A stretch of DNA of 64,000 nt from Escherichia coli (lineage in GTDB: Bacteria > Pseudomonadota > Gammaproteobacteria > Enterobacterales > Enterobacteriaceae), in NCBI RefSeq assembly GCF_024223415.1, contig NZ_CP100502.1. One strand, 5' to 3'. The translations under genes were made by a program, and so were the position numbers. The notes beneath the pieces are model-generated. The model searched no databases. It worked only from the letters and a program-made list of their open reading frames with translations, and had not been told where the DNA came from. Of the stretch, positions 1,651 to 27,489 are shown one piece after another. Positions within the stretch are counted from its first letter, which is position 1; each line of letters opens with the position of its first letter.

Positions 1651-2099
1651 CTGGCTGGATGTTCTCAGTACACGCTCGTAAGCGGCCCTGACGGCCCGCT
1701 AACGCGGAGATACGCCCCGACTTCGGGTAAACCCTCGTCGGGACCACTCCGACCGCGCACAGAAACTGTCTCATGGCTGAAAGCGGGTATGGCTTAGCAG
1801 GGCTGGGGATGGGTAAGGTGAAATCTATCAATCAGTACCGGCTGACGCCGGGCTTCGGCGGTTTTACTCCGGTATCACATGTAACCACAGCGTGCCGCCT
1901 TCCATGCCGCTGGCGCGGCATATCCTGGACGTATAGGAAATTGAAAAACCAGACGATACCGCTGTCCACGCCTTATGCCACGTGAGCCTTTCTGCTTTTC
2001 CCTCCACTCCGGTGGTTTCTCTCTCTGCATGGTCGATTTTTATACCGTAACAGGCTGTTTTTTATACCTGCACCGATTCCCGGGCACACTTAGCCTGTG

Positions 2100-2900
2100 T
2101 CAGGCCGGCATATACCTCAGCAGACTGATATCCCGCGCGTTTTTCTTCAGCCCTGATACATTCAGCCCCGCAATGGCCCGGCGGTATACCATCCGGCCGC
2201 CACACAGCACGCATTCGAACGGGTCACGACTCAGGAACTGTTTCACCATTTGTGCATAGCACACTTTCGCCACTGGTTCCGGCTTATCCATCCCCAGAGC
2301 ACGGTACACCTGCGGCAGCTTCTCTCCACACACCCGGTTGGCAAGGAACCCGAAGTATCTCACCATCTTAAAAAACTTCTCCGGGATGTGCTGTTTCAGC
2401 CTCGCGACCAGCTCCCGCTGTGTCAGCGTTTCCGTCGCCGTTTCTCCCGTTTTGTGGTCCAGGTAACGGAAGCTCAGACTCGCTCCTCCGTTGTAATGCG
2501 CCAGCCGGGAAGCCGCTATTGGTGGCTTCTTCAGATAACGACCCAGGTAGCGTGCCGTATTCCGCCCTCCGGCTGTCTTCTTCGACATGTACACATGCCA
2601 GTATTTTCCGCCGGCTTTCAGCACCAGGCTTCTCCACTGTGATTCCGTCGTGATATGTGACAACGATTCCGGCATCGCCAGACCTTCTGACCACGCTTTC
2701 AGAAGCAGCTGCCGCATATTCCACATCCACCGCGAACGCATCGCGTCTTTCAGGAAGCTCAGCTTTTTCCAGTGTCCGTGTTTATTCAGACCTCCGCAGG
2801 TCACTGACACATGCACATGCGGATGCCAGTTGAGACGACGGCCATACGTATGGATGGCGCAGAAGATACCGGGTTCCAGACCCCGTTTCCGGGCTGCATA
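2100..2900 (-). pseudogene. tnpA: IS91-family (rolling-circle, ISCR-like) transposase, C-terminal segment of a gene split by the Tn2-bounded insertion
   Basis: Reading frame continues upstream of the listed ORF to the insertion point; contains HTYGRRLNWHPHVH (HUH) and ARYLGRY (tyrosine) motifs; joins in frame with the 14248-14660 segment across the target duplication. Confidence 0.8.
2896..2900. repeat. 5-bp target site duplication GCATA (left copy)
   Basis: Identical pentamer directly flanks the outer ends of the two Tn2-type terminal inverted repeats (2896-2900 and 14248-14252). Confidence 0.8.
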
Positions 2901-2965
2901 GGGGTCTGACGCTCAGTGGAACGAAAACTCACGTTAAGGGATTTTGGTCATGAGATTATCAAAAA
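2901..2965. mobile_element. Tn2/Tn3 IRR-end fragment (38-bp inverted repeat at 2901-2938 plus 27 bp of adjacent Tn2 sequence)
   Basis: GGGGTCTGACGCTCAGTGGAACGAAAACTCACGTTAAG followed by GGATTTTGGTCATGAGATTATCAAAAAGG, identical to the bla-proximal end at 9298-9362. Confidence 0.85.
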
Positions 2966-3003
2966 GGGGAGCCCGCAGAATTCGGAAAAAATCGTACGCT
3001 AAG
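2966..3003. repeat. 38-bp terminal inverted repeat of a Tn21-subgroup transposon (Tn1721/Tn501-like, contains GAATTC)
   Basis: GGGGAGCCCGCAGAATTCGGAAAAAATCGTACGCTAAG overlapping the tnpA stop codon, as in Tn21-family elements. Confidence 0.7.
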
Positions 3004-5965
3004 GTTTTCCGGGCATCCGTAAGGGCCGAAACTTCCCGTCTTCCAGTCTGCGGCTCTGCCGCCAGACGTAATCGCCGGTTAGGTTGATGTGCTCCCAGCC
3101 CAGCGGCGACAGGAATTGCAGCAGCTCGCCGTCCACCGGCTTGCCGGCCTCGACCAACCCCTGGGTGGCGCGTTCCAGGTACACCGTGTTCCACAGCACG
3201 ATAGCCGCCGTCACCAGGTTGAGGCCGCTGGCCCGGTAGCGCTGCTGCTCGAAGCTCCGATCCCTGATTTCCCCAAGGCGGTTGAAGAACACCGCCCTGG
3301 CCAGCGAGTTGCGCGCCTCACCTTTGTTCAGGCCGGCATGCACGCGGCGGCGCAGTTCAACACTTTGCAGCCAGTCCAGGATGAACAGCGTGCGCTCGAT
3401 CCGGCCCAGCTCGCGCAGGGCCACGGCCAGTCCGTTCTGGCGCGGGTAGCTGCCGAGCTTGCGCAGCATCAGCGAGGCGGTGACGGTGCCCTGCTTGATC
3501 GAGCTGGCCAGGCGCAGGATGTCGTCCCAGTGGGCACGCACGTGCTTGATGTTCAGGGTGCCGCCGATCAGCGGGCGCAACGTCGGGTAGGCTTGCACGC
3601 CCTGCGGCACGTACAGCTTGGTTTCGCCGAGGTCGCGGATGCGCGGCGCGAAGCGGAAGCCTAGCAGGTGCATCAGGGCAAAGACGTGATCGGTGAAGCC
3701 GGCCGTGTCGGTGTAGTGCTCCTCGATCCGCAGGTCGGACTCGTGGTACAGCAGGCCGTCGAGCACATAGGTGGAATCGCGGACGCCGACATTCACCACG
3801 CGGGTGCTGAACGGCGCGTACTGGTCGGAGATATGGGTATAGAACAGCCGTCCCGGCTCGCTACCGTACTTCGGGTTGACGTGCCCGGTGCTCTCGCCCC
3901 GGCCACCCGCGCGGAAGCGCTGGCCATCGGAGGATGAGGTCGTGCCGTCGCCCCAGTGGGCGGCAAAGGCGTGGCGATACTGGTGGTTGACCAGCTCGGC
4001 CAAGGCCGCCGAATAGGTTTCGTCGCGGATGTGCCAGGCTTGCAGCCAGGACAGCTTGGCGTAGGTCAGGCCGGGGCTCGACTCGGCCATCTTGGTCAGC
4101 CCGAGGTTGATCGCATCACCGAGGATTGCGGACAGCAGCAACGTCCTGTCTTTGGCCTCGGCCCCGTCCTTCAAGTGGGTGAAGTGGCGGCTGAAGCCCG
4201 TCCAGTCGTCCACGTCCATCAGCAGTTCGGTGATCTTGATGCGCGGCAGTAACTGGCTGGTTTGGTCGATCAGCGCCTGCGCCCGATCCGGCACCGCCGC
4301 ATCCAGCGGGGTGATTTTCAGCCCTGACTCGGTGAGGATGGCATCGGGCAGCTCGTTGTCCTTGGCCAGGCGGGTGACGGTGGCCAACTGCTCGTCCAGC
4401 AGCTGCAAACGCTCTTCCAGGTACTGGTCGCTGTTCGGGTTGATCGCCAGGGGCAGGGCCTGCTCGCGCTTGAGTGCGGCGAACTTCTCGGCCGGCAGCA
4501 GGTAGTCGTCGAAGTCGCGGAACTGCCGCGAGCCCTTGACCCAGATGTCGCCGGAGCGCAGGGCGTTCTTCAGCTCGGACAGGGCGCAGATTTCGTAGAA
4601 TTTCCGGTCGAGGCCTTCCGGGGTGATCACCAGCGGCTTCCAGCGCGGCTTGATGAAGGCCGTGGGTGCATCGGCCGGCACCTTGCGCAGGTTGTCGGCG
4701 TTCATCTCACGCAGGGTCTGCACGGCTGCCAGCACGCCTTGCGCGGCCGGCGCGGCGCGCAGTTCCAGCACCTCCAGCAAGGCCGGCGTGTAACGGCGCA
4801 GGGTGGCGAAGTTCTCGCCGACCAGGTGCAGGTGGTCGAAGCCTTCCGGCCGGGCCAGCAGCTCGGCCTCGCTGACGCTCTCGGTGAACTCGTCCCAGGG
4901 AATCACCGCCTCGATGGCGGCATAGGGGTCGCTGCCGCTTTCCTTCGCTTCCAGCAGCGCCTGGCCGATCCTGGAGTACAGGCGCACCTTGTCGTTGATC
5001 GCCTTGCCCTGCTTCTGGAACTGCTGCTGATGCTTGTGCTTCGCGCCGCTGAACAGCTTGACCAGGATGCGGTCATGCAGATCGACCAGCTCATCGATCA
5101 CGGTCGCGGTGCTCTCCAGCACCACGGCGGCCAGGGTCGCGTAGCGGCGCTGCGGCTCGAACTTACCGAGGTCTTTGGGCGTCATCTGCCCACCCTCGCG
5201 GGCCAGCTTGAGCAGGCGGTTCTGGTGGATGTGCCGGCCCAGGCCTTCGGGCAAGTCCACCAACTGAAATGTCTTCAGCCGCTCGATGTGTTCCAGCATG
5301 TGCCGAGAGTTGGGTTTCAGCGGTGCCTGGCGCAGCCAGGTCAACCAGGTGATGCTGCTGCCGGCCTTGAGCTTCAACAGCTCGTCCAGCTTGGCCCGAT
5401 GCGAGTCCGTGAGTGGTTCGACCAGGGCGCGGTAGACCCGCCGATTGGCTCGCGCAATGGCTTCCGAGCAGGCCCGGTCAATCACGCTCAGCGCCGGCAG
5501 GATGCGTCGTTTCTGCCGTAGGCTCTCCAGGGCCTGACCGGCCAGCAGCAAGCCTTTGTCGGTCTGCTGGGCCAGCTCGGTTAGCTCGCGCACCAGGGCG
5601 CGGAAGTCGGACAGGCCGAACGGGGCCAGTTGCAGGTAGGTGCGCAGTTCCTGGGCATGCTCGCGACGGGTCACGTCGCGCTCGCCGTACTTTGCCCAGC
5701 TCGCCGGCTCGGCCTGGACTTGCTTCGCCACCCACAGGATGACCGGCTCGGGCAGCTCGCTGTCGGTTCCCAGCGCGTAACCGGGGTAGCGCAGCAGGCA
5801 GAGCTGCACGGCGAAGCCGAGGCGGTTGGCGTCGCCGCGTCGCTGGCGGATCAGCGACAGGTCGGAGTCGTTGAAGGTGTAGTAGCGGATCAGGTCATCC
5901 TGGCTTTCCGGCAGCGCAAGCAGGGTGTCCCGCTCCGTGGCCGAGAGGATCAAGCGACGCGGCAT
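2999..5965 (-). CDS. tnpA: Tn3-family transposase, Tn21 subgroup
   Basis: 988-aa ORF, recognised as Tn21/Tn1721-type TnpA by recall; immediately upstream of tnpR and res. Confidence 0.9.
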
Positions 5966-5968
5966 GTG

Positions 5969-6529
5969 TCAGTCGTCCGTGCGGAGGTACTGGTAGAGGG
6001 TTTCCCGGCTGATGTTGAACTCGCGGGCAAGCTGCGCCTTGGGCTCGCCGGCCGTCGCTCGCTGCCGCAGGGTAGCAGCCTGCTCATCGGACAGGGCTTT
6101 CTTGCGGCCCCGGTACGCGCCACGCTGCTTGGCCAAGGCGATGCCCTCACGCTGCCGCTCGCGGATCAGGGCGCGCTCGAACTCAGCGAAGGCCCCCATC
6201 ACCGACAGCATCAGGTTGGCCATCGGCGAGTCCTCGCCAGTGAACACCAGGCCCTCCTTCAGGAACTCGATGCGCACGCCGCGCTGAGTCAGCTTCTGTA
6301 CCAAGCGACGCAGGTCATCGAGGTTGCGGGCCAGCCGATCCATGCTGTGCACCACCACTGTATCGCCTTCGCGGACGAAGCTCAGCAGCGCTTCGAGCTG
6401 GGGGCGCTGGGTGTCCTTGCCCGATGCCTTGTCGGTGAACACCTTGCTCACCTGGGTTTGTTCCAGCTGGCGTTCCGGGTTCTGGTCAAAGCTGCTGACC
6501 CGGACGTAGCCGATGCGGTGCCCCTGCAC
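5969..6529 (-). CDS. tnpR: Serine resolvase of Tn21-subgroup transposon
   Basis: 186-aa ORF beginning MQGHRIGYVRVSS with catalytic serine motif and C-terminal HTH. Confidence 0.9.
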   Translation of the reverse strand: MQGHRIGYVRVSSFDQNPERQLEQTQVSKVFTDKASGKDTQRPQLEALLSFVREGDTVVVHSMDRLARNLDDLRRLVQKLTQRGVRIEFLKEGLVFTGEDSPMANLMLSVMGAFAEFERALIRERQREGIALAKQRGAYRGRKKALSDEQAATLRQRATAGEPKAQLAREFNISRETLYQYLRTDD

Positions 6530-6704
6530 GATGTCTCCTTGGTTGAAGGCGGCTTAAGTGCACTTTCTGTTCCGTTGTGCCTCAAAGCCCATTTCTGTCA
6601 GGCTGAAATCTATAACCTTCGCGGGCATGTGTCAAAAAATGGGAAAGCAGACTCTATTCTGACGAAGCGGCGCGGCCCTGCCTGACATCAAGTTAGGGTA
6701 TGCC
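6530..6704. promoter_or_regulatory. res (resolution) site region of the Tn21-like transposon
   Basis: Position between tnpR start and tnpM, as in Tn21; subsites not mapped. Confidence 0.5.
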
Positions 6705-7055
6705 TCAACCTGACGGCGGCGAATCACAAGCGTCCGGTTTGACGCTGGTTTCGGTCGCAGTGCTGGCCCGCGCCTGGAAGCGCTGATAGCACTCCAGCCC
6801 GCAGAAATGCTCCACGTACTCGGCCCCTTCCGGCGTGAAGGCGGCATCGAGCGGGATTTCCTTGCAGCACACGCAGCAACTGGTGCTCGGTTCATTGGCG
6901 TTCATGGTGGTGTTCCTCCATTGGTTGACGAAGCCGACGAAGGCCGCCGCCGGCATCGGCCTGGCGAACAGGAAACCCTGCACCGTGTCGCAACCCGCCT
7001 GCCGCAACCACGCAAGGCAGTCGGGTGTTTCCACACCCTCGGCTACCACCTCCAT
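6705..7055 (-). CDS. tnpM: TnpM (urf2M) of Tn21, start codon abutting integron IRi
   Basis: 116-aa C-terminal part of listed ORF beginning [21 protein letters not shown]; start lies directly against IRi at 7056. Confidence 0.6.
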
Positions 7056-7080
7056 TGTCGTTTTCAGAAGACGGCTGCAC
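7056..7080. repeat. IRi, 25-bp inverted repeat marking the intI1 end of a class 1 integron
   Basis: TGTCGTTTTCAGAAGACGGCTGCAC. Confidence 0.8.
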
Positions 7081-7257
7081 TGAACGTCAGAAGCCGACTG
7101 CACTATAGCAGCGGAGGGGTTGGATCCATCAGGCAACGACGGGCTGCTGCCGGCCATCAGCGGACGCAGGGAGGACTTTCCGCAACCGGCCGTTCGATGC
7201 GGCACCGATGGCCTTCGCGCAGGGGTAGTGAATCCGCCAGGATTGACTTGCGCTGCC

Positions 7258-8271
7258 CTACCTCTCACTAGTGAGGGGCGGCAGCGCATCAAGCGGTGAG
7301 CGCACTCCGGCACCGCCAACTTTCAGCACATGCGTGTAAATCATCGTCGTAGAGACGTCGGAATGGCCGAGCAGATCCTGCACGGTTCGAATGTCGTAAC
7401 CGCTGCGGAGCAAGGCCGTCGCGAACGAGTGGCGGAGGGTGTGCGGTGTGGCGGGCTTCGTGATGCCTGCTTGTTCTACGGCACGTTTGAAGGCGCGCTG
7501 AAAGGTCTGGTCATACATGTGATGGCGACGCACGACACCGCTCCGTGGATCGGTCGAATGCGTGTGCTGCGCAAAAACCCAGAACCACGGCCAGGAATGC
7601 CCGGCGCGCGGATACTTCCGCTCAAGGGCGTCGGGAAGCGCAACGCCGCTGCGGCCCTCGGCCTGGTCCTTCAGCCACCATGCCCGTGCACGCGACAGCT
7701 GCTCGCGCAGGCTGGGTGCCAAGCTCTCGGGTAACATCAAGGCCCGATCCTTGGAGCCCTTGCCCTCCCGCACGATGATCGTGCCGTGATCGAAATCCAG
7801 ATCCTTGACCCGCAGTTGCAAACCCTCACTGATCCGCATGCCCGTTCCATACAGAAGCTGGGCGAACAAACGATGCTCGCCTTCCAGAAAACCGAGGATG
7901 CGAACCACTTCATCCGGGGTCAGCACCACCGGCAAGCGCCGCGACGGCCGAGGTCTTCCGATCTCCTGAAGCCAGGGCAGATCCGTGCACAGCACCTTGC
8001 CGTAGAAGAACAGCAAGGCCGCCAATGCCTGACGATGCGTGGAGACCGAAACCTTGCGCTCGTTCGCCAGCCAGGACAGAAATGCCTCGACTTCGCTGCT
8101 GCCCAAGGTTGCCGGGTGACGCACACCGTGGAAACGGATGAAGGCACGAACCCAGTGGACATAAGCCTGTTCGGTTCGTAAGCTGTAATGCAAGTAGCGT
8201 ATGCGCTCACGCAACTGGTCCAGAACCTTGACCGAACGCAGCGGTGGTAACGGCGCAGTGGCGGTTTTCAT
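7258..8271 (-). CDS. intI1: Class 1 integron integrase
   Basis: 337-aa ORF beginning [49 protein letters not shown]. Confidence 0.95.
8156..8184 (+). promoter_or_regulatory. Integron cassette promoter Pc, weak variant (-35 TGGACA, 17-bp spacer, -10 TAAGCT); P2 inactive (14-bp spacer between TTGTTA and TACAGT)
   Basis: Hexamers read directly inside the intI1 coding region; no GGG insertion between TTGTTA and TACAGT near 8290. Confidence 0.7.
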
Positions 8272-8289
8272 GGCTTGTTATGACTGTTT

Positions 8290-8410
8290 TTTTGTACAGT
8301 CTATGCCTCGGGCATCCAAGCAGCAAGCGCGTTACGCCGTGGGTCGATGTTTGATGTTATGGAGCAGCAACGATGTTACGCAGCAGGGCAGTCGCCCTAA
8401 AACAAAGTTA
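8290..8410. other. attI1 recombination site region
   Basis: Sequence ending CCCTAAAACAAAGTTA at the cassette boundary upstream of dfrA1. Confidence 0.6.
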
Positions 8411-8427
8411 ACCTCTGAGGAAGAATT

Positions 8428-8901
8428 GTGAAACTATCACTAATGGTAGCTATATCGAAGAATGGAGTTATCGGGAATGGCCCTGATATTCCATGGAGTG
8501 CCAAAGGTGAACAGCTCCTGTTTAAAGCTATTACCTATAACCAATGGCTGTTGGTTGGACGCAAGACTTTTGAATCAATGGGAGCATTACCCAACCGAAA
8601 GTATGCGGTCGTAACACGTTCAAGTTTTACATCTGACAATGAGAACGTAGTGATCTTTCCATCAATTAAAGATGCTTTAACCAACCTAAAGAAAATAACG
8701 GATCATGTCATTGTTTCAGGTGGTGGGGAGATATACAAAAGCCTGATCGATCAAGTAGATACACTACATATATCTACAATAGACATCGAGCCGGAAGGTG
8801 ATGTTTACTTTCCTGAAATCCCCAGCAATTTTAGGCCAGTTTTTACCCAAGACTTCGCCTCTAACATAAATTATAGTTACCAAATCTGGCAAAAGGGTTA
8901 A
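8428..8901 (+). CDS. dfrA1: Trimethoprim-resistant dihydrofolate reductase DfrA1 (gene cassette)
   Basis: 157-aa ORF with GTG start, [52 protein letters not shown]. Confidence 0.9.
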
Positions 8902-8993
8902 CAAGTGGCAGCAACGGATTCGCAAACCTGTCACGCCTTTTGTACCAAAAGCCGCGCCAGGTTTGCGATCCGCTGTGCCAGGCGTTAAACATC
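8902..8993. other. attC (59-be) of the dfrA1 cassette
   Basis: Between dfrA1 stop and aadA1 start, ending GTTAAAC core. Confidence 0.5.
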
Positions 8994-9297
8994 ATGAGGG
9001 AAGCGGTGATCGCCGAAGTATCGACTCAACTATCAGAGGTAGTTGGCGTCATCGAGCGCCATCTCGAACCGACGTTGCTGGCCGTACATTTGTACGGCTC
9101 CGCAGTGGATGGCGGCCTGAAGCCACACAGTGATATTGATTTGCTGGTTACGGTGACCGTAAGGCTTGATGAAACAACGCGGCGAGCTTTGATCAACGAC
9201 CTTTTGGAAACTTCGGCTTCCCCTGGAGAGAGCGAGATTCTCCGCGCTGTAGAAGTCACCATTGTTGTGCACGACGACATCATTCCGTGGCGTTATC
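8994..9297 (+). pseudogene. aadA1: aadA1 streptomycin/spectinomycin adenylyltransferase, 3'-truncated (about 101 of 263 codons) by Tn2 IRR
   Basis: Begins MREAVIAEVSTQLSEVVGVIERHLEPTLLAVHLYGSAVDGGLKPHSDIDLL; reading frame runs straight into the Tn2 inverted repeat at 9298. Confidence 0.85.
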
Positions 9298-9335
9298 GGG
9301 GTCTGACGCTCAGTGGAACGAAAACTCACGTTAAG
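9298..9335. repeat. Tn2/Tn3 38-bp terminal inverted repeat (IRR, bla end)
   Basis: GGGGTCTGACGCTCAGTGGAACGAAAACTCACGTTAAG. Confidence 0.9.
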
Positions 9336-9444
9336 GGATTTTGGTCATGAGATTATCAAAAAGGATCTTCACCTAGATCCTTTTAAATTAAAAATGAAGT
9401 TTTAAATCAATCTAAAGTATATATGAGTAAACTTGGTCTGACAG

Positions 9445-10317
<873 letters not shown>

Positions 10318-10487
10318 TCAATATTATTGAAGCATTTACCAGGGTTATTGTCTCATGAGCGGATACATATTTGAATGTATTTAGAAAAATAAACAAATAG
10401 GGGTTCCGCGCACATTTCCCCGAAAAGTGCCACCTGACGTCTAAGAAACCATTATTATCATGACATTAACCTATAAAAATAGGCGTA

Positions 10488-11208
<721 letters not shown>

Positions 11209-14200
11209 ATGCCCGTTGACTTTCTGACCACTGAGCAGACTGAAAGCTATGGCAGATTCACCGGTGAACCGGATGAGCTTCAGCTGGCACGATATTTTCA
11301 CCTTGATGAAGCAGACAAGGAATTTATCGGAAAAAGCAGAGGTGATCACAACCGTCTGGGCATTGCCCTGCAAATTGGATGTGTCCGTTTTCTGGGCACC
11401 TTCCTCACCGATATGAATCATATTCCTTCCGGCGTCCGGCATTTTACCGCCAGACAGCTCGGGATTCGTGATATCACCGTTCTTGCAGAATACGGTCAGA
11501 GGGAAAATACCCGCCGTGAGCATGCAGCGCTGATACGTCAGCACTATCAGTATCGTGAATTTGCCTGGCCCTGGACATTTCGCCTTACCCGTCTTTTATA
11601 TACCCGGAGCTGGATAAGCAACGAACGTCCTGGCCTGCTTTTCGATCTGGCGACAGGGTGGCTTATGCAACATCGTATTATTCTCCCCGGAGCCACTACG
11701 CTGACCCGGTTGATTTCAGAGGTAAGGGAAAAGGCGACGTTGCGCCTGTGGAACAAACTGGCACTGATACCGTCAGCCGAACAGCGTTCACAGCTGGAGA
11801 TGCTGCTGGGGCCAACTGATTGCAGCCGCCTGTCTTTACTGGAATCACTGAAAAAGGGCCCTGTGACCATCAGTGGTCCGGCGTTTAATGAAGCAATTGA
11901 ACGCTGGAAAACTCTGAACGATTTTGGCCTGCATGCTGAAAACCTGAGTACACTCCCGGCTGTGCGCCTGAAAAATCTCGCACGTTATGCTGGTATGACT
12001 TCGGTGTTCAATATTGCCAGGATGTCACCGCAGAAAAGGATGGCGGTTCTGGTTGCCTTTGTCCTTGCATGGGAAACGCTGGCGCTGGATGATGCATTGG
12101 ACGTTCTGGACGCCATGCTGGCCGTTATCATCCGTGACGCCAGAAAGATTGGGCAGAAAAAACGGCTCCGCTCGCTGAAGGATCTGGATAAATCTGCATT
12201 GGCGCTCGCCAGCGCATGTTCGTACCTGCTGAAAGAAGAAACACCGGACGAATCGATTCGTGCTGAGGTGTTCAGCTACATCCCAAGGCAAAAGCTGGCT
12301 GAAATCATCACGCTTGTCCGTGAAATTGCCCGGCCCTCAGACGATAATTTTCATGAAGAAATGGTGGAGCAGTACGGGCGCGTTCGTCGTTTCCTGCCCC
12401 ATCTGCTGAATACCGTTAAATTTTCATCCGCACCTGCCGGGGTTACCACTCTGAATGCCTGTGACTACCTCAGCCGGGAGTTCAGCTCACGGCGGCAGTT
12501 TTTTGACGACGCACCAACGGAAATTATCAGTCGGTCATGGAAACGGCTGGTGATTAACAAGGAAAAACATATCACCCGCAGGGGATACACGCTCTGCTTT
12601 CTCAGTAAACTGCAGGATAGTCTGAGGCGGAGGGATGTCTACGTTACCGGCAGTAACCGGTGGGGAGATCCTCGTGCAAGATTACTACAGGGTGCTGACT
12701 GGCAGGCAAACCGGATTAAGGTTTATCGTTCTTTGGGGCACCCGACAGACCCGCAGGAAGCAATAAAATCTCTGGGTCATCAGCTTGATAGTCGTTACAG
12801 ACAGGTTGCTGCACGTCTTTGCGAAAATGAGGCTGTCGAACTCGATGTTTCTGGCCCGAAGCCCCGGTTGACAATTTCTCCCCTCGCCAGTCTTGATGAG
12901 CCGGACAGTCTGAAACGACTGAGCAAAATGATCAGTGATCTACTCCCTCCGGTGGATTTAACGGAGTTGCTGCTCGAAATTAACGCCCATACCGGATTTG
13001 CTGATGAGTTTTTCCATGCTAGTGAAGCCAGTGCCAGAGTTGATGATCTGCCCGTCAGCATCAGCGCCGTGCTGATGGCTGAAGCCTGCAATATCGGTCT
13101 GGAACCACTGATCAGATCAAATGTTCCTGCACTGACCCGACACCGGCTGAACTGGACAAAAGCGAACTATCTGCGGGCTGAAACTATCACCAGCGCTAAT
13201 GCCAGACTGGTTGATTTTCAGGCAACGCTGCCACTGGCACAGATATGGGGTGGAGGAGAAGTGGCATCTGCAGATGGAATGCGCTTTGTTACGCCAGTCA
13301 GAACAATCAATGCCGGACCGAACCGCAAATACTTTGGTAATAACAGAGGGATCACCTGGTACAACTTTGTGTCCGATCAGTATTCCGGCTTTCATGGCAT
13401 CGTTATACCGGGGACGCTGAGGGACTCTATCTTTGTGCTGGAAGGTCTTCTGGAACAGGAGACCGGGCTGAATCCAACCGAAATTATGACCGATACAGCA
13501 GGTGCCAGCGAACTTGTCTTTGGCCTTTTCTGGCTGCTGGGATACCAGTTTTCTCCACGCCTGGCTGATGCCGGTGCTTCGGTTTTCTGGCGAATGGACC
13601 ATGATGCCGACTATGGCGTGCTGAATGATATTGCCAGAGGGCAATCAGATCCCCGAAAAATAGTCCTTCAGTGGGACGAAATGATCCGGACCGCTGGCTC
13701 CCTGAAGCTGGGCAAAGTACAGGTTTCAGTGCTGGTCCGTTCATTGCTGAAAAGTGAACGTCCTTCCGGACTGACTCAGGCAATCATTGAAGTGGGGCGC
13801 ATCAACAAAACGCTGTATCTGCTTAATTATATTGATGATGAAGATTACCGCCGGCGCATTCTGACCCAGCTTAATCGGGGAGAAAGTCGCCATGCCGTTG
13901 CCAGAGCCATCTGTCACGGTCAAAAAGGTGAGATAAGAAAACGATATACCGACGGTCAGGAAGATCAACTGGGCACACTGGGGCTGGTCACTAACGCCGT
14001 CGTGTTATGGAACACTATTTATATGCAGGCAGCCCTGGATCATCTCCGGGCGCAGGGTGAAACACTGAATGATGAAGATATCGCACGCCTCTCCCCGCTT
14101 TGCCACGGACATATCAATATGCTCGGCCATTATTCCTTCACGCTGGCAGAACTGGTGACCAAAGGACATCTGAGACCATTAAAAGAGGCGTCAGAGGCAG

Positions 14201-14214
14201 AAAACGTTGCTTAA
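11209..14214 (+). CDS. tnpA: Tn2/Tn3 transposase
   Basis: About 1001 aa from MPVDFLTTEQTESYGRFTGEPDEL; stop codon lies inside the terminal repeat. Confidence 0.95.
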   Translation: MPVDFLTTEQTESYGRFTGEPDELQLARYFHLDEADKEFIGKSRGDHNRLGIALQIGCVRFLGTFLTDMNHIPSGVRHFTARQLGIRDITVLAEYGQRENTRREHAALIRQHYQYREFAWPWTFRLTRLLYTRSWISNERPGLLFDLATGWLMQHRIILPGATTLTRLISEVREKATLRLWNKLALIPSAEQRSQLEMLLGPTDCSRLSLLESLKKGPVTISGPAFNEAIERWKTLNDFGLHAENLSTLPAVRLKNLARYAGMTSVFNIARMSPQKRMAVLVAFVLAWETLALDDALDVLDAMLAVIIRDARKIGQKKRLRSLKDLDKSALALASACSYLLKEETPDESIRAEVFSYIPRQKLAEIITLVREIARPSDDNFHEEMVEQYGRVRRFLPHLLNTVKFSSAPAGVTTLNACDYLSREFSSRRQFFDDAPTEIISRSWKRLVINKEKHITRRGYTLCFLSKLQDSLRRRDVYVTGSNRWGDPRARLLQGADWQANRIKVYRSLGHPTDPQEAIKSLGHQLDSRYRQVAARLCENEAVELDVSGPKPRLTISPLASLDEPDSLKRLSKMISDLLPPVDLTELLLEINAHTGFADEFFHASEASARVDDLPVSISAVLMAEACNIGLEPLIRSNVPALTRHRLNWTKANYLRAETITSANARLVDFQATLPLAQIWGGGEVASADGMRFVTPVRTINAGPNRKYFGNNRGITWYNFVSDQYSGFHGIVIPGTLRDSIFVLEGLLEQETGLNPTEIMTDTAGASELVFGLFWLLGYQFSPRLADAGASVFWRMDHDADYGVLNDIARGQSDPRKIVLQWDEMIRTAGSLKLGKVQVSVLVRSLLKSERPSGLTQAIIEVGRINKTLYLLNYIDDEDYRRRILTQLNRGESRHAVARAICHGQKGEIRKRYTDGQEDQLGTLGLVTNAVVLWNTIYMQAALDHLRAQGETLNDEDIARLSPLCHGHINMLGHYSFTLAELVTKGHLRPLKEASEAENVA

Positions 14215-14247
14215 CGTGAGTTTTCGTTCCACTGAGCGTCAGACCCC
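14210..14247. repeat. Tn2/Tn3 38-bp terminal inverted repeat (IRL, tnpA end)
   Basis: CTTAACGTGAGTTTTCGTTCCACTGAGCGTCAGACCCC. Confidence 0.9.
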
Positions 14248-14252
14248 GCATA
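14248..14252. repeat. 5-bp target site duplication GCATA (right copy)
   Basis: Matches 2896-2900. Confidence 0.8.
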
Positions 14253-14660
14253 CAGCAGATTCTCCACCGCCAGACGGCACACGTCATTCAGCAGCCAGCG
14301 GTTGCTTTCGAACACCGGCCACAGCGTGTCCGGCAGGGTGAAGACCAGGTGCACCCAGTCGCAGTCAGGAAGACGATTCAGCTGTGTCGCTATCCACAGG
14401 TCTGTGGCCTTTTTTCCGCAGGACGGGCAGGCACGGCTGCCACATGAGTTAGTGACGTATCTGACGTGGGGGCACTCAGGTTTATCGCAGTTGTATTCCT
14501 TCACACCCAGTATCCGCGTGCCGCAGGCCAGCATTTTTGTGACAGCCTCAACCTCGATATCGCGCAGGCCGCCCGCATCCAGGAAGGATGTCCAGCACTG
14601 GTTGGCTGTGAACAGGCGTTTCAGCGGTCGGGGCTGAAAATCACCACCACTTCGGGTCAT
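14248..14660 (-). pseudogene. tnpA: IS91-family transposase, N-terminal zinc-binding segment of the gene split by the Tn2-bounded insertion
   Basis: CPHVRYVTNSCGSRACPSCGKK zinc-ribbon-like motif; frame joins 2100-2900 across the target duplication. Confidence 0.75.
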
Positions 14661-14913
14661 CCGCCTTCATCTCCGCTTCAGTTTCGTATAAATCAAAACG
14701 ACGGCAGGTATGGCAGAACGTGACGTATTCGTACGGTGAATCCGGGTACATTTTGTGGAAGGTTTCCCAGAAACAGACCGTACAGGAGGGATGACCGGCG
14801 ATAAAGTCTGTAAATACAGACTGATAAGGGTGATTATTGGCCCTGGCGACGGCTTTCAGAACCTCTTTCACCATTCTGGTGTGGACTTTCTGGTGCTCCA
14901 GGTTGTGTGACAT
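14641..14913 (-). CDS. Cys/His-rich ORF upstream of and overlapping the IS91-family tnpA start in another frame (upstream accessory ORF or frameshifted N-terminus)
   Basis: 90-aa ORF with HPSCTVCFWETFHKMY...CHTCRRF; overlaps tnpA by 20 nt in a different frame. Confidence 0.35.
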   Translation of the reverse strand: MSHNLEHQKVHTRMVKEVLKAVARANNHPYQSVFTDFIAGHPSCTVCFWETFHKMYPDSPYEYVTFCHTCRRFDLYETEAEMKADDPKWW

Positions 14914-15127
14914 GGGAACTCATTCTGGATGGTTACTCTGAAAGCTCATATTCTGCCACACCACGATTTGCAGCCGCCAGGCTGCCGTGGTTCATGGTTA
15001 GGTTTTGCGATAGTATATTTACGAGCTGATTAAGGTTTGGCATAGTGTGGTTCGTAAGAAAAATTACTATTATGCCTTGTCCTTAGTCAGCTTTTTTGTT
15101 TTTTGTCGTGTACAGAGAGAAGCCCCC

Positions 15128-15943
15128 ATGAATAAATCGCTCATCATTTTCGGCATCGTCAACATAACCTCGGACAGTTTCTCCGATGGAGGCCGGTATC
15201 TGGCGCCAGACGCAGCCATTGCGCAGGCGCGTAAGCTGATGGCCGAGGGGGCAGATGTGATCGACCTCGGTCCGGCATCCAGCAATCCCGACGCCGCGCC
15301 TGTTTCGTCCGACACAGAAATCGCGCGTATCGCGCCGGTGCTGGACGCGCTCAAGGCAGATGGCATTCCCGTCTCGCTCGACAGTTATCAACCCGCGACG
15401 CAAGCCTATGCCTTGTCGCGTGGTGTGGCCTATCTCAATGATATTCGCGGTTTTCCAGACGCTGCGTTCTATCCGCAATTGGCGAAATCATCTGCCAAAC
15501 TCGTCGTTATGCATTCGGTGCAAGACGGGCAGGCAGATCGGCGCGAGGCACCCGCTGGCGACATCATGGATCACATTGCGGCGTTCTTTGACGCGCGCAT
15601 CGCGGCGCTGACGGGTGCCGGTATCAAACGCAACCGCCTTGTCCTTGATCCCGGCATGGGGTTTTTTCTGGGGGCTGCTCCCGAAACCTCGCTCTCGGTG
15701 CTGGCGCGGTTCGATGAATTGCGGCTGCGCTTCGATTTGCCGGTGCTTCTGTCTGTTTCGCGCAAATCCTTTCTGCGCGCGCTCACAGGCCGTGGTCCGG
15801 GGGATGTCGGGGCCGCGACACTCGCTGCAGAGCTTGCCGCCGCCGCAGGTGGAGCTGACTTCATCCGCACACACGAGCCGCGCCCCTTGCGCGACGGGCT
15901 GGCGGTATTGGCGGCGCTGAAAGAAACCGCAAGAATTCGTTAA
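15128..15943 (+). CDS. sul2: Sulfonamide-resistant dihydropteroate synthase Sul2
   Basis: 271 aa from MNKSLIIFGIVNITSDSFSDGGRYLAPDAAIAQARKLMAEGADVIDLG. Confidence 0.95.
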   Translation: MNKSLIIFGIVNITSDSFSDGGRYLAPDAAIAQARKLMAEGADVIDLGPASSNPDAAPVSSDTEIARIAPVLDALKADGIPVSLDSYQPATQAYALSRGVAYLNDIRGFPDAAFYPQLAKSSAKLVVMHSVQDGQADRREAPAGDIMDHIAAFFDARIAALTGAGIKRNRLVLDPGMGFFLGAAPETSLSVLARFDELRLRFDLPVLLSVSRKSFLRALTGRGPGDVGAATLAAELAAAAGGADFIRTHEPRPLRDGLAVLAALKETARIR

Positions 15944-16029
15944 CTGCACATTCGGGATATTTCTCTATATTCGCGGTTCAGCAGGCATGTCCCCTTTGAG
16001 GGCGACCCGACGACAGGATAATCGACCTT

Positions 16030-16275
16030 ATGGTGCGCAAATATTTCGGCACAGACGGTATTCGTGGCAAAGCCAACGAAGGCGCGATGACGGCGGAAAC
16101 CGCCTTGCGCGTCGGCATGGCGGCTGGCCGTGTCTTTCGTCGCGGTGACCACCGCCATCGTGTCGTGATCGGCAAGGATACGCGCCTGTCGGGCTATATG
16201 CTTGAACCCGCGCTCACAGCCGGTTTCACCTCGATGGGCATGGACGTATTCCTTTTTGGCCCGCTGCCGACAACG
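16030..16275 (+). pseudogene. glmM: Truncated phosphoglucosamine mutase fragment, the usual sul2-associated relic
   Basis: [36 protein letters not shown]... then loss of similarity. Confidence 0.8.
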
Positions 16276-16507
16276 TATAGGAAGAATAAACGCCCTTTTC
16301 ACCCAAGTCCAACAGCTTTGGACCGCAGTTGACTCTTTCGACACCCCTGCGATGCAACCCAATCCGGCTGACGGGGAGCCAGCAACGCTGAAAATTTACC
16401 CTCCTCTTTCCCACTAGCGGCTCCTTTTCCGACAACCAGCACGGCGGATCCCTGCCGCGGCGCTGTGAACGCAGCATTTTGATTGGTATCGTTGGCCTTC
16501 AGGCTCG

Positions 16508-17644
16508 TCAGTCAAACAGACCCAGGAGCAGCTCAGCCGGTGGCGCCCGGCTTTCGGGTAACGCCCTGGTCCCGCTGGTTTCGGCTTTGTGCTTCAGGTG
16601 ATCAAGGATCTGCTTGATCACTATAGGGTCTTCAATGCAGGCGATGACTTTCATGGCGCCGCCGCAGCCGCTGCAGGTCTCGATGTCGATATTGAAAACA
16701 CGCTTGAGCCGTTGCGCCCATGTCATCGACGCTCGCCGTTGTGCTGGTGTTGCCGGTTCATCAGCCACCCTGACCTTGTTGCCCCTGCCCCGTTTTGCCG
16801 GCGTGACCAACGCCCGGTGCCGACTGTTGGGTGCGAACACCCCGTGGAAGCGGGTTAGGTTGACTCTGGGCTTCGGTACCAGGGCGGCCAGCCTTGCAAT
16901 GAAATCCAATGGTTCGAAAATGACGTGCGTGGTGCCGTCCCGGTACGGCGTCTTGAGCTGGTAGCGCACGTTGCCGCCTCGTGTTAACGACAGCCGCTTC
17001 TCGGATACCGCCGGGCGGCTGATGTACCGGCACAGCCGTTCGAGCTTCTTGCGTTCATCGGCCCTGGCCGCCACGCCGGCGTGCAGGCTGGACCCGGCTA
17101 CCTTGCCAATCCCGTCACCGAACGGATCACCACTGGTCGGCAGAGTTTGCAAAGTGAACACCTTTCGCCCCGCCTGTGAACCGACAGCGATACGGTAAGT
17201 GATCGAGTGCCCCAGCAGGGGTGTCATCGGGTCGTCATCCACCGCATCCGAGGCCAGATAGCTGTTTTCGACATCCCGTTCCAGCAGGCCTTGCCGTTCC
17301 AGATAGCGACCCACCCGGTGGGCGATGGTGTGCGTCAGCTGGGTGAGCTCTGGGGTGGTCGGCGCCTTGACCCAGCGGAAACGCGCTGAGCCGTGGGATT
17401 GCTCGACATACACACCGTCGAGAAACAGCATGTGGAAGTGAACATTCAGATTGAGCGCCGATCCAAAACGCTGGATCAGGGTGACCGCGCCCGTCTTGGC
17501 CACTTGGTGGGTATGGCCCGCTTTCTTGACCAGGTGCGTGGCAATGACGCGGTAAACGATGCCCAGCACCCACCCCATGATCTCGGGCCGGCTGGCAAAC
17601 AGGAAACGCAGCTGAAACGGGAAGCTCAACACCCACTGACGCAT
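16508..17644 (-). CDS. IS91-family ISCR2-like transposase, probably lacking the N-terminal zinc-binding region
   Basis: 378-aa ORF with HFH (HUH) and YxxxY motifs and ISCR-type C-terminus IDIETCSGCGGAMKVIACIEDPIVIKQILDHL; adjacent to sul2 and truncated glmM. Confidence 0.7.
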   Translation of the reverse strand: MRQWVLSFPFQLRFLFASRPEIMGWVLGIVYRVIATHLVKKAGHTHQVAKTGAVTLIQRFGSALNLNVHFHMLFLDGVYVEQSHGSARFRWVKAPTTPELTQLTHTIAHRVGRYLERQGLLERDVENSYLASDAVDDDPMTPLLGHSITYRIAVGSQAGRKVFTLQTLPTSGDPFGDGIGKVAGSSLHAGVAARADERKKLERLCRYISRPAVSEKRLSLTRGGNVRYQLKTPYRDGTTHVIFEPLDFIARLAALVPKPRVNLTRFHGVFAPNSRHRALVTPAKRGRGNKVRVADEPATPAQRRASMTWAQRLKRVFNIDIETCSGCGGAMKVIACIEDPIVIKQILDHLKHKAETSGTRALPESRAPPAELLLGLFD

Positions 17645-17971
17645 GGGTTGTTCGTCCTGGACGGCGAACCCGGCAAAGCTCCTGTAACATTGCTTCTTCC
17701 TGTTTTGTTAGCGTGACTGTCACGCTAGCGCCTTCCTCTTTGAGTCGCGCGCGGCGCCGGGCCTGGCGAATACGGGCTTGTTCACGCTGTCGGTCATTCA
17801 TATTTTTCCTCCACGTGACTGTCACGTTGAATTAAACTGGGCATTACCCCTGCGGGGCCGTTCTGCCGTGCTGCGCATCGAGCCGCTACGCGTCTCGCCC
17901 CTTCGGGCGGCGGCCACTAATGCCTCCGGCCTGCGGCCTCCGCGCTTCGCTTGTGACGATATCTGAATCGT

Positions 17972-17988
17972 TATATACTGTGTATATA
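17972..17988. promoter_or_regulatory. Palindromic operator-like site TATATAC-N3-GTATATA upstream of the toxin-antitoxin operon
   Basis: Perfect 7-bp inverted arms about 25 bp upstream of the antitoxin start. Confidence 0.4.
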
Positions 17989-18010
17989 CGTAGTAATGAC
18001 GAGGTGATAA

Positions 18011-18280
18011 ATGGCACAGGTTAATATGAGTTTAAGAATCGACGCTGAACTGAAGGATGCTTTTATGGCCGCTGCAAAAAGCATGGACCGTAATGGCTCT
18101 CAGTTAATTCGGGATTTTATGCGCCAGACCGTTGAACGGCAGCATAATACCTGGTTCCGTGACCAGGTTGAGGCAGGACGTCAGCAACTCGAGCGCGGCG
18201 ATGTGCTTCCCCATGACATGGTCGAATCTTCCGCTGCTGCATGGCGGGATGAAATGAGCAGGAAGGTTGCCGGTAAATGA
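18011..18280 (+). CDS. Antitoxin, ParD/RelB-like (YacA-like of IncI plasmids)
   Basis: 89-aa ORF with ribbon-helix-helix-like N-terminus; 4-nt overlap with downstream toxin gene. Confidence 0.7.
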   Translation: MAQVNMSLRIDAELKDAFMAAAKSMDRNGSQLIRDFMRQTVERQHNTWFRDQVEAGRQQLERGDVLPHDMVESSAAAWRDEMSRKVAGK

Positions 18281-18558
18281 TGGAGATATTCTGGACCATG
18301 CTGGCCAGCCAGGACAGGAAGCGCATTCGTAAGTACATTGCGGAGCAGAACCTGATGGCCGCCATTGAACTGGACGAACGGATTGGTTATTCAGCCAGCA
18401 GCCTGGCCGGGCAGCCGTATAAAGGCCGCAACGGTCGTGTGGAAGGTACCCGGGAACTGGTTATTCACCCGCATTTTGTTCTGGTTTATGAGGTCGACAG
18501 CCAGTGGGGAAAAGTGTATATCCTGCGCGTGTTGCATACTGCACAGAAGTGGCCATAG
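18277..18558 (+). CDS. Toxin, RelE/ParE superfamily (YacB-like)
   Basis: 93-aa ORF translationally coupled to the antitoxin; typical RelE/ParE size and composition. Confidence 0.7.
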   Translation: MMEIFWTMLASQDRKRIRKYIAEQNLMAAIELDERIGYSASSLAGQPYKGRNGRVEGTRELVIHPHFVLVYEVDSQWGKVYILRVLHTAQKWP

Positions 18559-27232: not shown

Positions 27233-27489
27233 TACCTGTCATCCTCCGGCCAGATGAGGTTTCTGAGGCGCTGAAAGTCGGCGTCAATGAGCTCCTGTCT
27301 CTTTATGGCATTCATTGAGGCATAGCCATTTATGGCCAGTTCATGCCAGAAGATCAGCACGGCTCCGGCTTTGGCTGACTCGCAGAGATAAATCGCGCCC
27401 TGGCTGTCCAGATTGCATTCCCGGATGCGTCGTTCCGCAAACCGGGTCAGTTGTTCATAGCTGAGTGAAAACGTCATTTCCTGATCCAT
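27232..27489 (-). CDS. Hypothetical small protein, first gene of a two-gene operon
   Basis: 85-aa ORF translationally coupled to the downstream gene. Confidence 0.5.
   Translation of the reverse strand: MDQEMTFSLSYEQLTRFAERRIRECNLDSQGAIYLCESAKAGAVLIFWHELAINGYASMNAIKRQELIDADFQRLRNLIWPEDDR

Follow-up and report, generated by a model that had tools for sequence, protein, structure and literature searches.

Does the sul2 module of an IncI1 plasmid carry its own small regulator? The question is raised by a short open reading frame (ORF) on the minus strand of a 64,000-nucleotide stretch of Escherichia coli DNA (NZ_CP100502.1; hereafter, the window), located next to an ISCR2-like transposase gene. 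A first, sequence-only reading had described the ORF as a ribbon-helix-helix (RHH)-like protein of about 59 residues, accompanied by a Shine-Dalgarno (SD) sequence and by two copies of a GTGAC-N-GTCAC palindrome, one upstream of the ORF and one within it, and had proposed an autoregulated DNA-binding protein at the edge of the sul2 module. The window corresponds to the IncI1-type plasmid pF1005-1 (NZ_OY754354.1), to which it is 100% identical at the same coordinates over the 16.9 kb compared. Here, we follow the ORF to its parent gene, its junctions, and the probable role of its palindromes.

Results

The small ORF is the front end of an IncN gene

The palindromes, the SD, and the peptide are present in the sequence as originally described. 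On the minus strand of 17840-17640, a 15-nt palindrome (ACGTGACaGTCACGT) is followed by the SD (GGAGG, 17812-17808), an ATG at 17801, and the coding sequence MNDRQREQARIRQARRRARLKEEGASVTVTLTKQEEAMLQELCRVRRPGRTT..., which encodes MNDRQREQARIRQARRRARLKEEGASVTVTLTKQEEAMLQEL... (from direct reading of the sequence and the ORF listing). The proposed length of about 59 aa did not hold: we found no stop codon near 17645, and the frame runs on from the ATG to 17235, giving 188 codons, or 196 when counted from an upstream GTG. We also found no ISCR2 copy natively matching 17654-17953 upstream of codon 117. This chimeric ORF (17235-17801, minus strand) consists of codons 1-51 of orfD, a gene of IncN plasmids, and 137 codons of out-of-frame ISCR2 sequence. 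The orfD stub was left unannotated by PGAP, and the chimera has already been called by some pipelines as a protein of 188-189 aa (P0035, P0036).

The IncN-derived fragment spans 305 bp (17649-17953, minus strand) and comprises the DNA that follows the stbC terminator, the 5' region of orfD, and orfD codons 1-51. All 305 nt, including the 51 codons, are identical to positions 2948-3252 of the IncN plasmid R46 (L002), and the last five of them (GAACA) are also common to ISCR2. The match begins directly past the stbC terminator of R46 and enters the gene for a 114-aa hypothetical protein (OrfD; WP_000999874.1), which is uninterrupted there. Using OrfD as a tblastn query, residues 1-55 were aligned to 17801-17637 at 93%, and no second OrfD copy was detected in the window. 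A 251-bp query from the region matched 838 PLSDB records; among the matches listed, many are IncN-type plasmids, in which an annotated 'hypothetical protein', called OrfD in one record, overlaps the match, and the IncI-type matches carry no annotation at that spot.

The gene order stbA-stbB-stbC-orfD is kept in the IncN-like loci L002, L007, L009, L013, and L018, and this unit has been named the 'stbABC-orfD operon', with no function given (PMC5371602). Beyond the operon name, our literature search found no functional data on IncN orfD/stbC or on ArdR/ArdK. Relative to orfD of R46 and pKM101, the window shares 305 bp at 100% nucleotide identity, from the DNA upstream of the gene through the SD and both palindromes to codon 51, but here the gene breaks off after 51 of its 114 codons, continues out of frame into ISCR2, and has been detached from stbABC. 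Neither stbABC nor a full-length orfD (about 114 aa) is present in the window, and the neighbours of the stub are IncI1 yacA and the truncated ISCR2. The region is an uninterrupted part of a longer known gene in IncN plasmids, namely its first 51 codons and the DNA upstream, which is the outcome that the sequence-only reading had itself named as a refutation, and the small ORF is the front end of IncN orfD that was moved onto an IncI1 resistance plasmid and persists as a junction relic.

The GC-rich part of the IncN fragment (17830-17953) has an 85%-identical, 66-nt copy elsewhere in the leading region of R46; the two copies lie at L002 3000-3065 and 4716-4781, the latter between ccgAI and ardA. 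A structured ssDNA or RNA element at 17826-17956 was considered and dropped, given that the ssDNA fold of either strand was no better than that of shuffled sequence. Searching 17500-18100 against Rfam returned a single sub-threshold chance match.

orfD is joined out of frame to a 5'-truncated ISCR2

When the window was aligned with both R46 and an ISCR2 copy whose 5' end is intact (L004), the orfD::ISCR2 junction fell at the shared pentanucleotide GAACA (17649-17653, minus strand), which includes the IS91-family tetranucleotide GAAC. Identity to ISCR2 begins at 17653, corresponding to codon 117 of the transposase gene, and upstream of this point L004 differs completely. Since the junction lies 348 nt inside the transposase gene of L004, the ISCR2 copy of the window lacks codons 1-116 and everything upstream. 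What remains of the gene (codons 117-497; 16508-17653, minus strand) matches the Pfam model Y2_Tnp (E 4e-36) and is annotated by PGAP as 'ISCR2/ISVsa3 family transposase, missing N-terminus', the Zn-binding N-terminal part being absent.

These alignments also bear on how the ORF and the transposase had been related to each other. The Met at 17644, where the ISCR2-like transposase had been taken to begin and from which the annotated 378-aa 'transposase' is read, is an internal one, at about codon 120 of the truncated gene. The frames of orfD and the transposase differ, as their starts are separated by a distance that is no multiple of three (17801-17644 = 157). Whether the region is native ISCR2 sequence or a junction relic had been posed as a question for comparison with ISCR2 copies; the complete difference of the upstream sequence identifies it as a junction relic. 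Likewise, a regulator belonging to the sul2 module finds no support, given that the sequence is IncN orfD and is absent from ISCR2 with an intact 5' end. More than 4,500 PLSDB records contain ISCR2 sequence, and only 157 of these records carry the orfD::ISCR2 junction.

A 58-bp piece of ISCR2, corresponding to window 17596-17653, occurs alone at 100% identity in many E. coli records, where it is annotated as partial IS91-family or zinc-binding-domain fragments. These lone pieces point to a second common ISCR2 breakpoint near 17596.

The ends of the accessory region suggest one-ended transposition

On its far side, upstream of yacA, the IncN fragment meets the IncI1 backbone. This junction was located at 17950-17953 (minus strand) by aligning the window with R46 and with an IncI plasmid that is uninterrupted here: the IncI backbone ...ATATCGTCAC is followed by R46-derived AAGCGAAG..., whereas the uninterrupted plasmid continues ...GTCACCAGGATATG. 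The fragment starts with CAAG, which we propose to be the surrogate termination site of an IS91-family transposition unit. The complete arrangement of yacA, IncN fragment, and truncated ISCR2 is found in 157 PLSDB records.

The fragment forms one edge of a 16,025-bp accessory region (1929-17953), which is a precise insertion into a contiguous IncI backbone that resumes at 1928. The backbone reads GTCA^CCAGG at the insertion point, which holds the 16,025-bp insert plus one extra C. The region contains TnAs1, a class 1 integron with dfrA1, Tn2 with blaTEM-1, sul2, a glmM remnant, and the truncated ISCR2. At its other end (1929-2100, minus strand) lies the oriIS-like terminus of an IS91-family element, ...TTTCCTATACGT; the low-coordinate end itself reads ...GGTTTTTCAATTTCCTATACGT on the minus strand, followed by CCAG. 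The sequence TTCCTATACGT is common to this terminus and to the oriIS end of ISCR2 at about 16273 in the window. The transposase gene of the IS91-family element is split on the minus strand into a C-terminal part (2100-2900) and an N-terminal part (14247-14660), and it is the TnAs1/integron/Tn2 block that splits it. The junction between backbone and oriIS was recovered from 351 PLSDB records. A 90-aa ORF (14641-14913), for which no NCBIfam model matched, overlaps the start of the split transposase gene, in a position comparable to that of orf121 of IS91.

IS91-family elements insert next to GTTC/CTTG (equivalent to GAAC/CAAG) and rarely CTGG, do not duplicate their target, and carry DNA beyond terIS when transposition is one-ended (PMC13181058). 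As in one-ended units of IS91, IS1294, and ISCR elements, an oriIS-like end abuts the target in the window, the target is not duplicated, the distal end falls on a CAAG/GAAC tetranucleotide (here CAAG, from R46-derived DNA), and adjacent resistance genes are co-mobilised; unlike in such units, the transposase gene is split by TnAs1/integron/Tn2 and the event is reconstructed. The ends of the accessory region thus suggest one-ended IS91-family transposition from an unsampled IncN donor. In the IncN plasmid CP101668.1 (L020 3149-3160), an IS91-family element 91-93% identical to that of the window is located in orfD at the GAAC (codons R50-T51) that forms the orfD::ISCR2 junction here, which supports this origin independently, and this orfD site appears to have been used at least twice by IS91-family elements.

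Transposition may have proceeded in two steps. In the first, the IS91-family element, together with sul2, the glmM remnant, and a truncated ISCR2, would have formed a unit whose end was a GAAC within ISCR2, and this unit would have inserted into orfD at orfD's own GAAC. In the second, another read-through would have ended at the CAAG after the stbC terminator, and the resulting unit would have inserted into the IncI1 backbone; this one-ended, rolling-circle move would have brought sul2, the glmM remnant, the truncated ISCR2, and the orfD stub from the IncN donor. A synthetic stbC-orfD::ISCR2 query retrieved no donor with stbC and orfD::ISCR2 from PLSDB. The left flank of sul2 differs among the relic-bearing plasmids, and the transposition history is therefore a reconstruction.

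OrfD is predicted to form a ribbon-helix-helix dimer

No Pfam or NCBIfam model matches intact OrfD, and neither collection yielded anything usable for the window ORF. The close OrfD family comprises about 55 clusters, all called hypothetical, and a profile search extended the family to 99 cluster representatives, in which an alternating hydrophobic/polar strand pattern precedes an L-S/T-x-x-E cap. All 47 aligned members have a basic N-terminus with invariant R12 and R17, a strand in which hydrophobic residues alternate with variable ones, the L-S/T-x-x-E helix cap, a PY...E(Y/F)..LI helix, and a C-terminal CxxCG...C...CW motif. C80, C83, and C103 are invariant in these 47 sequences, and C92 is invariant in the close family.

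Intact R46 OrfD matches phrog_536, a 'transcriptional regulator' family annotated from remote homology and not from experiment, over positions 2-112 of 115 (E 6e-19). Together with four remote homologues, OrfD gives full-length matches with E values of 6e-19 to 1e-34, whereas the window ORF covers profile positions 2-50 only (E 6e-5). Remote homologues sit in phage-like gene neighbourhoods. Known RHH models (RHH_1, RHH_10, NikA-like, and RepB-RCR_reg) were each reached by one or two of the 47 members, at E values of 0.03-0.07.

To model a dimer, AF2 was given OrfD residues 1-78 twice, connected by a Gly-Ser linker, with 38 homologues treated likewise. The resulting model (pLDDT 79, pTM 0.67) contains strands at 25-31 and 123-129 and two helices per copy. 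The predicted dimer adopts a beta-alpha-alpha fold with an intermolecular two-stranded sheet, as is required of an RHH protein, and the model favours an RHH dimer for OrfD. CopG and Arc recognise a short palindromic site close to promoter and SD. With the CopG, Arc, and MetJ repressors, and with the single-chain proteins TraY and AvtR, OrfD would have in common the beta-alpha-alpha fold, a strand that is paired in the dimer, the alternation of hydrophobic and polar residues in this strand, and a short palindrome close to promoter or SD. It differs from them by matching no RHH model of Pfam, by an additional basic helix at the N-terminus and a C-terminal Cys4 domain, and by DNA binding that is putative.

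What the window encodes is a different matter. Its copy of orfD keeps 148 bp upstream of the ATG, both palindromes, the basic helix, the strand, and helix A, and lacks helix B (the dimer core) and the Cys4 domain; 28 of the 48 columns invariant across the close family fall in these missing regions. The original description as RHH-like is apt for the OrfD protein family. As it has neither helix B nor the Cys4 domain and reads into out-of-frame ISCR2, this copy is unlikely to bind DNA, and a working DNA-binding protein is an unlikely interpretation of the window ORF. Judged by its sequence, the window copy is most likely an inert, non-functional relic.

The OrfD family profile has a weak match to the zinc-finger region of YbiI/TraR among PDB sequences (E about 0.02, below significance). 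The TraR/YbiI-like (DksA-type) part corresponds to OrfD residues 57-113, a helix followed by CxxCG...GC...CW, and is missing in the window. The resemblance to the C4 zinc fingers of F-plasmid TraR and E. coli YbiI is confined to this helix and the CxxC...C arrangement, whereas the N-terminus of OrfD is basic, the Cys spacing is different, and OrfD has no Pfam match. ArdR was considered as a paralogue of OrfD and rejected when its sequence was read by eye.

Palindromes at orfD and ardR are candidate operators

The 11-mer GTGACNGTCAC occurs exactly twice in the 64-kb window, at 17713-17723 and 17815-17825. About 0.06 matches are expected from shuffled sequences, and one of 100 shuffles reached two. 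Both sites are longer than first reported, with centres 102 bp apart: site 1 (ACGTGACaGTCACGT, 17813-17827) lies immediately 5' of the orfD SD, and site 2 (TAGCGTGACaGTCACGCTA, 17709-17727) is inside orfD, where it covers the codons for S-V-T-V-T-L of the predicted beta-strand. No further perfect site is present in the window. In the 50 kb of R46, the perfect 13-mer CGTGACaGTCACG is found three times, twice at orfD and once just 5' of the ardR SD. This third copy (L012 (R46) 27311-27323; L018 15898-15908) is located between the ardB stop/hairpin and the ardR SD; it displays the same succession of palindrome, SD, and ATG as orfD and is kept in an 86%-identical IncN variant, which suggests that ardR belongs to the same regulon.

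The two orfD sites have been retained across considerable divergence. A copy of site 1, exact or with one mismatch, lies just upstream of orfD in L009, L011, L013, L007, and L018. L009, L011, and L013, with OrfD proteins 52-64% identical to that of R46, carry both sites, and their intergenic DNA around the kept sites does not align; L007 has one mismatch in each site. The sequence CGTGAC-N-GTCACG, upstream of and inside orfD, is conserved in most diverged IncN-like lineages examined. To compare codon usage with R46, only positions with an identical residue were counted. The SVTVTL codons were identical at six of six positions in L018 and L009 (rest of the gene: 72% and 51%, respectively) and at five of six in L013 (rest of the gene: 42%), where the sole change affects the central N. 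The internal palindrome extends to a perfect inverted repeat of 27 nt in L009 (2583-2609) and of 23 nt in L013 (3085-3107), which exceeds the need of a single RHH dimer site.

An OrfD homologue from an unrelated element (P0061 of L015; 35% identity) carries the strand S-L-T-L-T-L in place of S-V-T-V-T-L, with the same variable residues; no other protein of L015 has a relative in R46. The two-gene operon of P0061 has a near-consensus promoter (TTGACA-17-TATCAT); copies of GTGACNGTCAC are located just upstream of its -35 and in its spacer, and a one-mismatch copy is found just before the SD. Homologues with other strand residues (L014, L016, and L017) have no such site. Strand residues and palindrome therefore appear to covary as expected if the beta-strand reads the palindrome, with L015 as the one independent lineage.

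Taken at the level of sequence conservation, the palindromes are probably functional operators of the intact parent gene. Autoregulation through the palindromes, as suggested by the sequence-only reading, is accordingly plausible for the parent, in which the sites show conserved, operator-like behaviour, and does not extend to the window copy. Within the window fragment, the minus strand upstream of orfD showed no sigma-70-like promoter, a result that counts against the operator model. A full-text literature search for the palindrome sequence retrieved no plasmid-related paper. Site 2 and an adjoining T-rich run (17706-17730, plus strand) score as an intrinsic-terminator-like hairpin antisense to orfD, which is a pattern match only.

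Discussion

The ORF at the edge of the sul2 module is best explained by four elements taken together: it is a relic of IncN orfD, its parent gene encodes a palindrome-binding RHH regulator, the copy in the window is inert, and the relic arrived by one-ended transposition of an IS91-family element. We regard this joint account as likely. At the level of mechanism, OrfD would be a dimeric RHH regulator of the phrog_536 family with a basic helix at its N-terminus and a Cys4 (zinc-ribbon-like) domain at its C-terminus, and the beta-strand residues S26, T28, and T30 would mediate its binding to CGTGAC-N-GTCACG. IncN plasmids have such sites just 5' of the orfD SD, some 10 helical turns further down within orfD, and just 5' of the ardR SD, an arrangement that could provide for autorepression of OrfD as well as control of ardR.

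The original proposal, a complete RHH autoregulator of about 59 aa that serves the ISCR2/sul2 module and acts via both palindromes, draws on a good SD and ATG, an RHH-like strand-helix pattern, and palindromes both upstream and inside. It is already largely refuted, and we consider it the least credible of the alternatives: the frame passes the point at which a 59-aa protein would stop and extends over 188 codons into out-of-frame ISCR2; the sequence is 100% that of IncN orfD, which encodes 114 aa when intact and does not occur in an ISCR2 whose 5' end is complete; 28 of the 48 columns invariant across the close family are lost along with helix B and the Cys4 domain; and the junction occurs in 157 PLSDB records, compared to more than 4,500 with ISCR2. 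The relic might instead be active, its operators or the 51-residue stub titrating or interfering with the OrfD of a co-resident IncN plasmid, or the fragment altering the yacA promoter. Both sites are intact and 100% identical to R46, the -35 of the predicted yacA promoter (TTGTGA) lies across the junction and approaches the consensus more closely than the native TGGTGA does, and the arrangement persists in 157 plasmids. However, two sites make a weak decoy when their plasmid is present in few copies, and the persistence is explained by IncI1/ST3-type plasmids spreading clonally under selection for sul2 and blaCTX-M (PMC4179741). We consider activity of the relic very improbable.

Two further alternatives concern the palindromes themselves. 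They could be cis elements other than OrfD operators, either pairing as RNA around the SD and AUG or being bound by ArdR, ArdK, or KorA. Indeed, sites 1 and 2 pair with each other and enclose the start codon in the MFE fold of 17700-17835, the internal palindrome of L009 and L013 is longer than a single RHH dimer would need, and the third site lies upstream of ardR, itself annotated as a regulator. The fold, however, is no better than that of shuffled sequence (z -1.0), a 6-bp stem with a 1-nt loop makes a poor hairpin, and two of the three L015 sites are in or upstream of the promoter and would not be transcribed; as to other binding proteins, L015 is without ArdR, ArdK, and KorA and has only the OrfD homologue in common with R46. 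We judge this explanation unlikely, albeit the most serious of the alternatives. A coding by-product combined with chance would require GTG-ACN-GTC-ACN to have arisen because it encodes V-T-V-T, with a fortuitous upstream copy. Such cases do exist: GTGACNGTCAC or a one-mismatch version encodes V-T-V-T in unrelated genes, among them a 68-aa gene next to ardA in L007 (3628-3638) and a 220-aa gene in L015 (1480-1490). Yet the upstream site is non-coding and is kept amid otherwise non-aligning intergenic DNA, and the codons of the internal site are more conserved than the rest of the gene, including the Leu codon CTA. CTA is a rare Leu codon in E. coli. In addition, three perfect 13-mers in the 50 kb of R46 compare with far less than one expected for 12 specified bases, and three sites are clustered on one L015 promoter. 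Coincidence of this kind is extremely improbable, and we retain the reading of the palindromes as operators of intact OrfD.

For annotation, the consequence is that the ORF is a relic of an IncN gene and not a sul2/ISCR2 regulator, and no gene should be called here. Relic and IS91-family ends together suggest that the sul2 region of the widespread IncI1/ST3-type blaCTX-M-1 plasmids was assembled by way of an unsampled IncN intermediate, and they identify the GAAC of orfD as a repeatedly used insertion point of IS91-family elements. IncN orfD, in turn, gains a candidate and testable function, in which it would encode an RHH repressor acting on a defined 13-bp operator at both orfD and ardR; OrfD would be an uncharacterised member of a well-known type of system, an RHH repressor with its palindromic operator, encountered here as a relic. 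A bolder proposal, which we put forward tentatively as a serious possibility that falls just short of being probable, is that OrfD/phrog_536 constitutes an uncharacterised class of RHH and Cys4 repressors, whose IncN member controls its own gene and ardR via CGTGAC-N-GTCACG, with one of the operators written into the codons of the S-V-T-V-T strand, and whose window copy is a dead, operator-bearing stub that could still bind the OrfD of a co-resident IncN plasmid. If true, an operator would be encoded in the same codons as the beta-strand that reads it, and control would reach ardR, an anti-restriction regulator of the plasmid leading region.

The genomic context of orfD differs from that of type II antitoxin operons, as a toxin gene directly downstream of orfD is absent in the IncN loci and in the window. 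In the IncN loci, the genes after orfD are convergent (ccgAII/ccgAI or small genes on the opposite strand), and in the window ISCR2 follows. The true toxin-antitoxin pair here is yacA/yacB (18011-18558), which is located on the opposite strand and belongs to the IncI1 backbone. The sole sigma-70-like promoter nearby (TTGTGA-17-TATACT; 17951-17979, plus strand) presumably serves yacA. Its predicted -35 hexamer (17951-17956) spans the IncI/IncN junction, at which the native TGGTGA became TTGTGA, one match closer to consensus.
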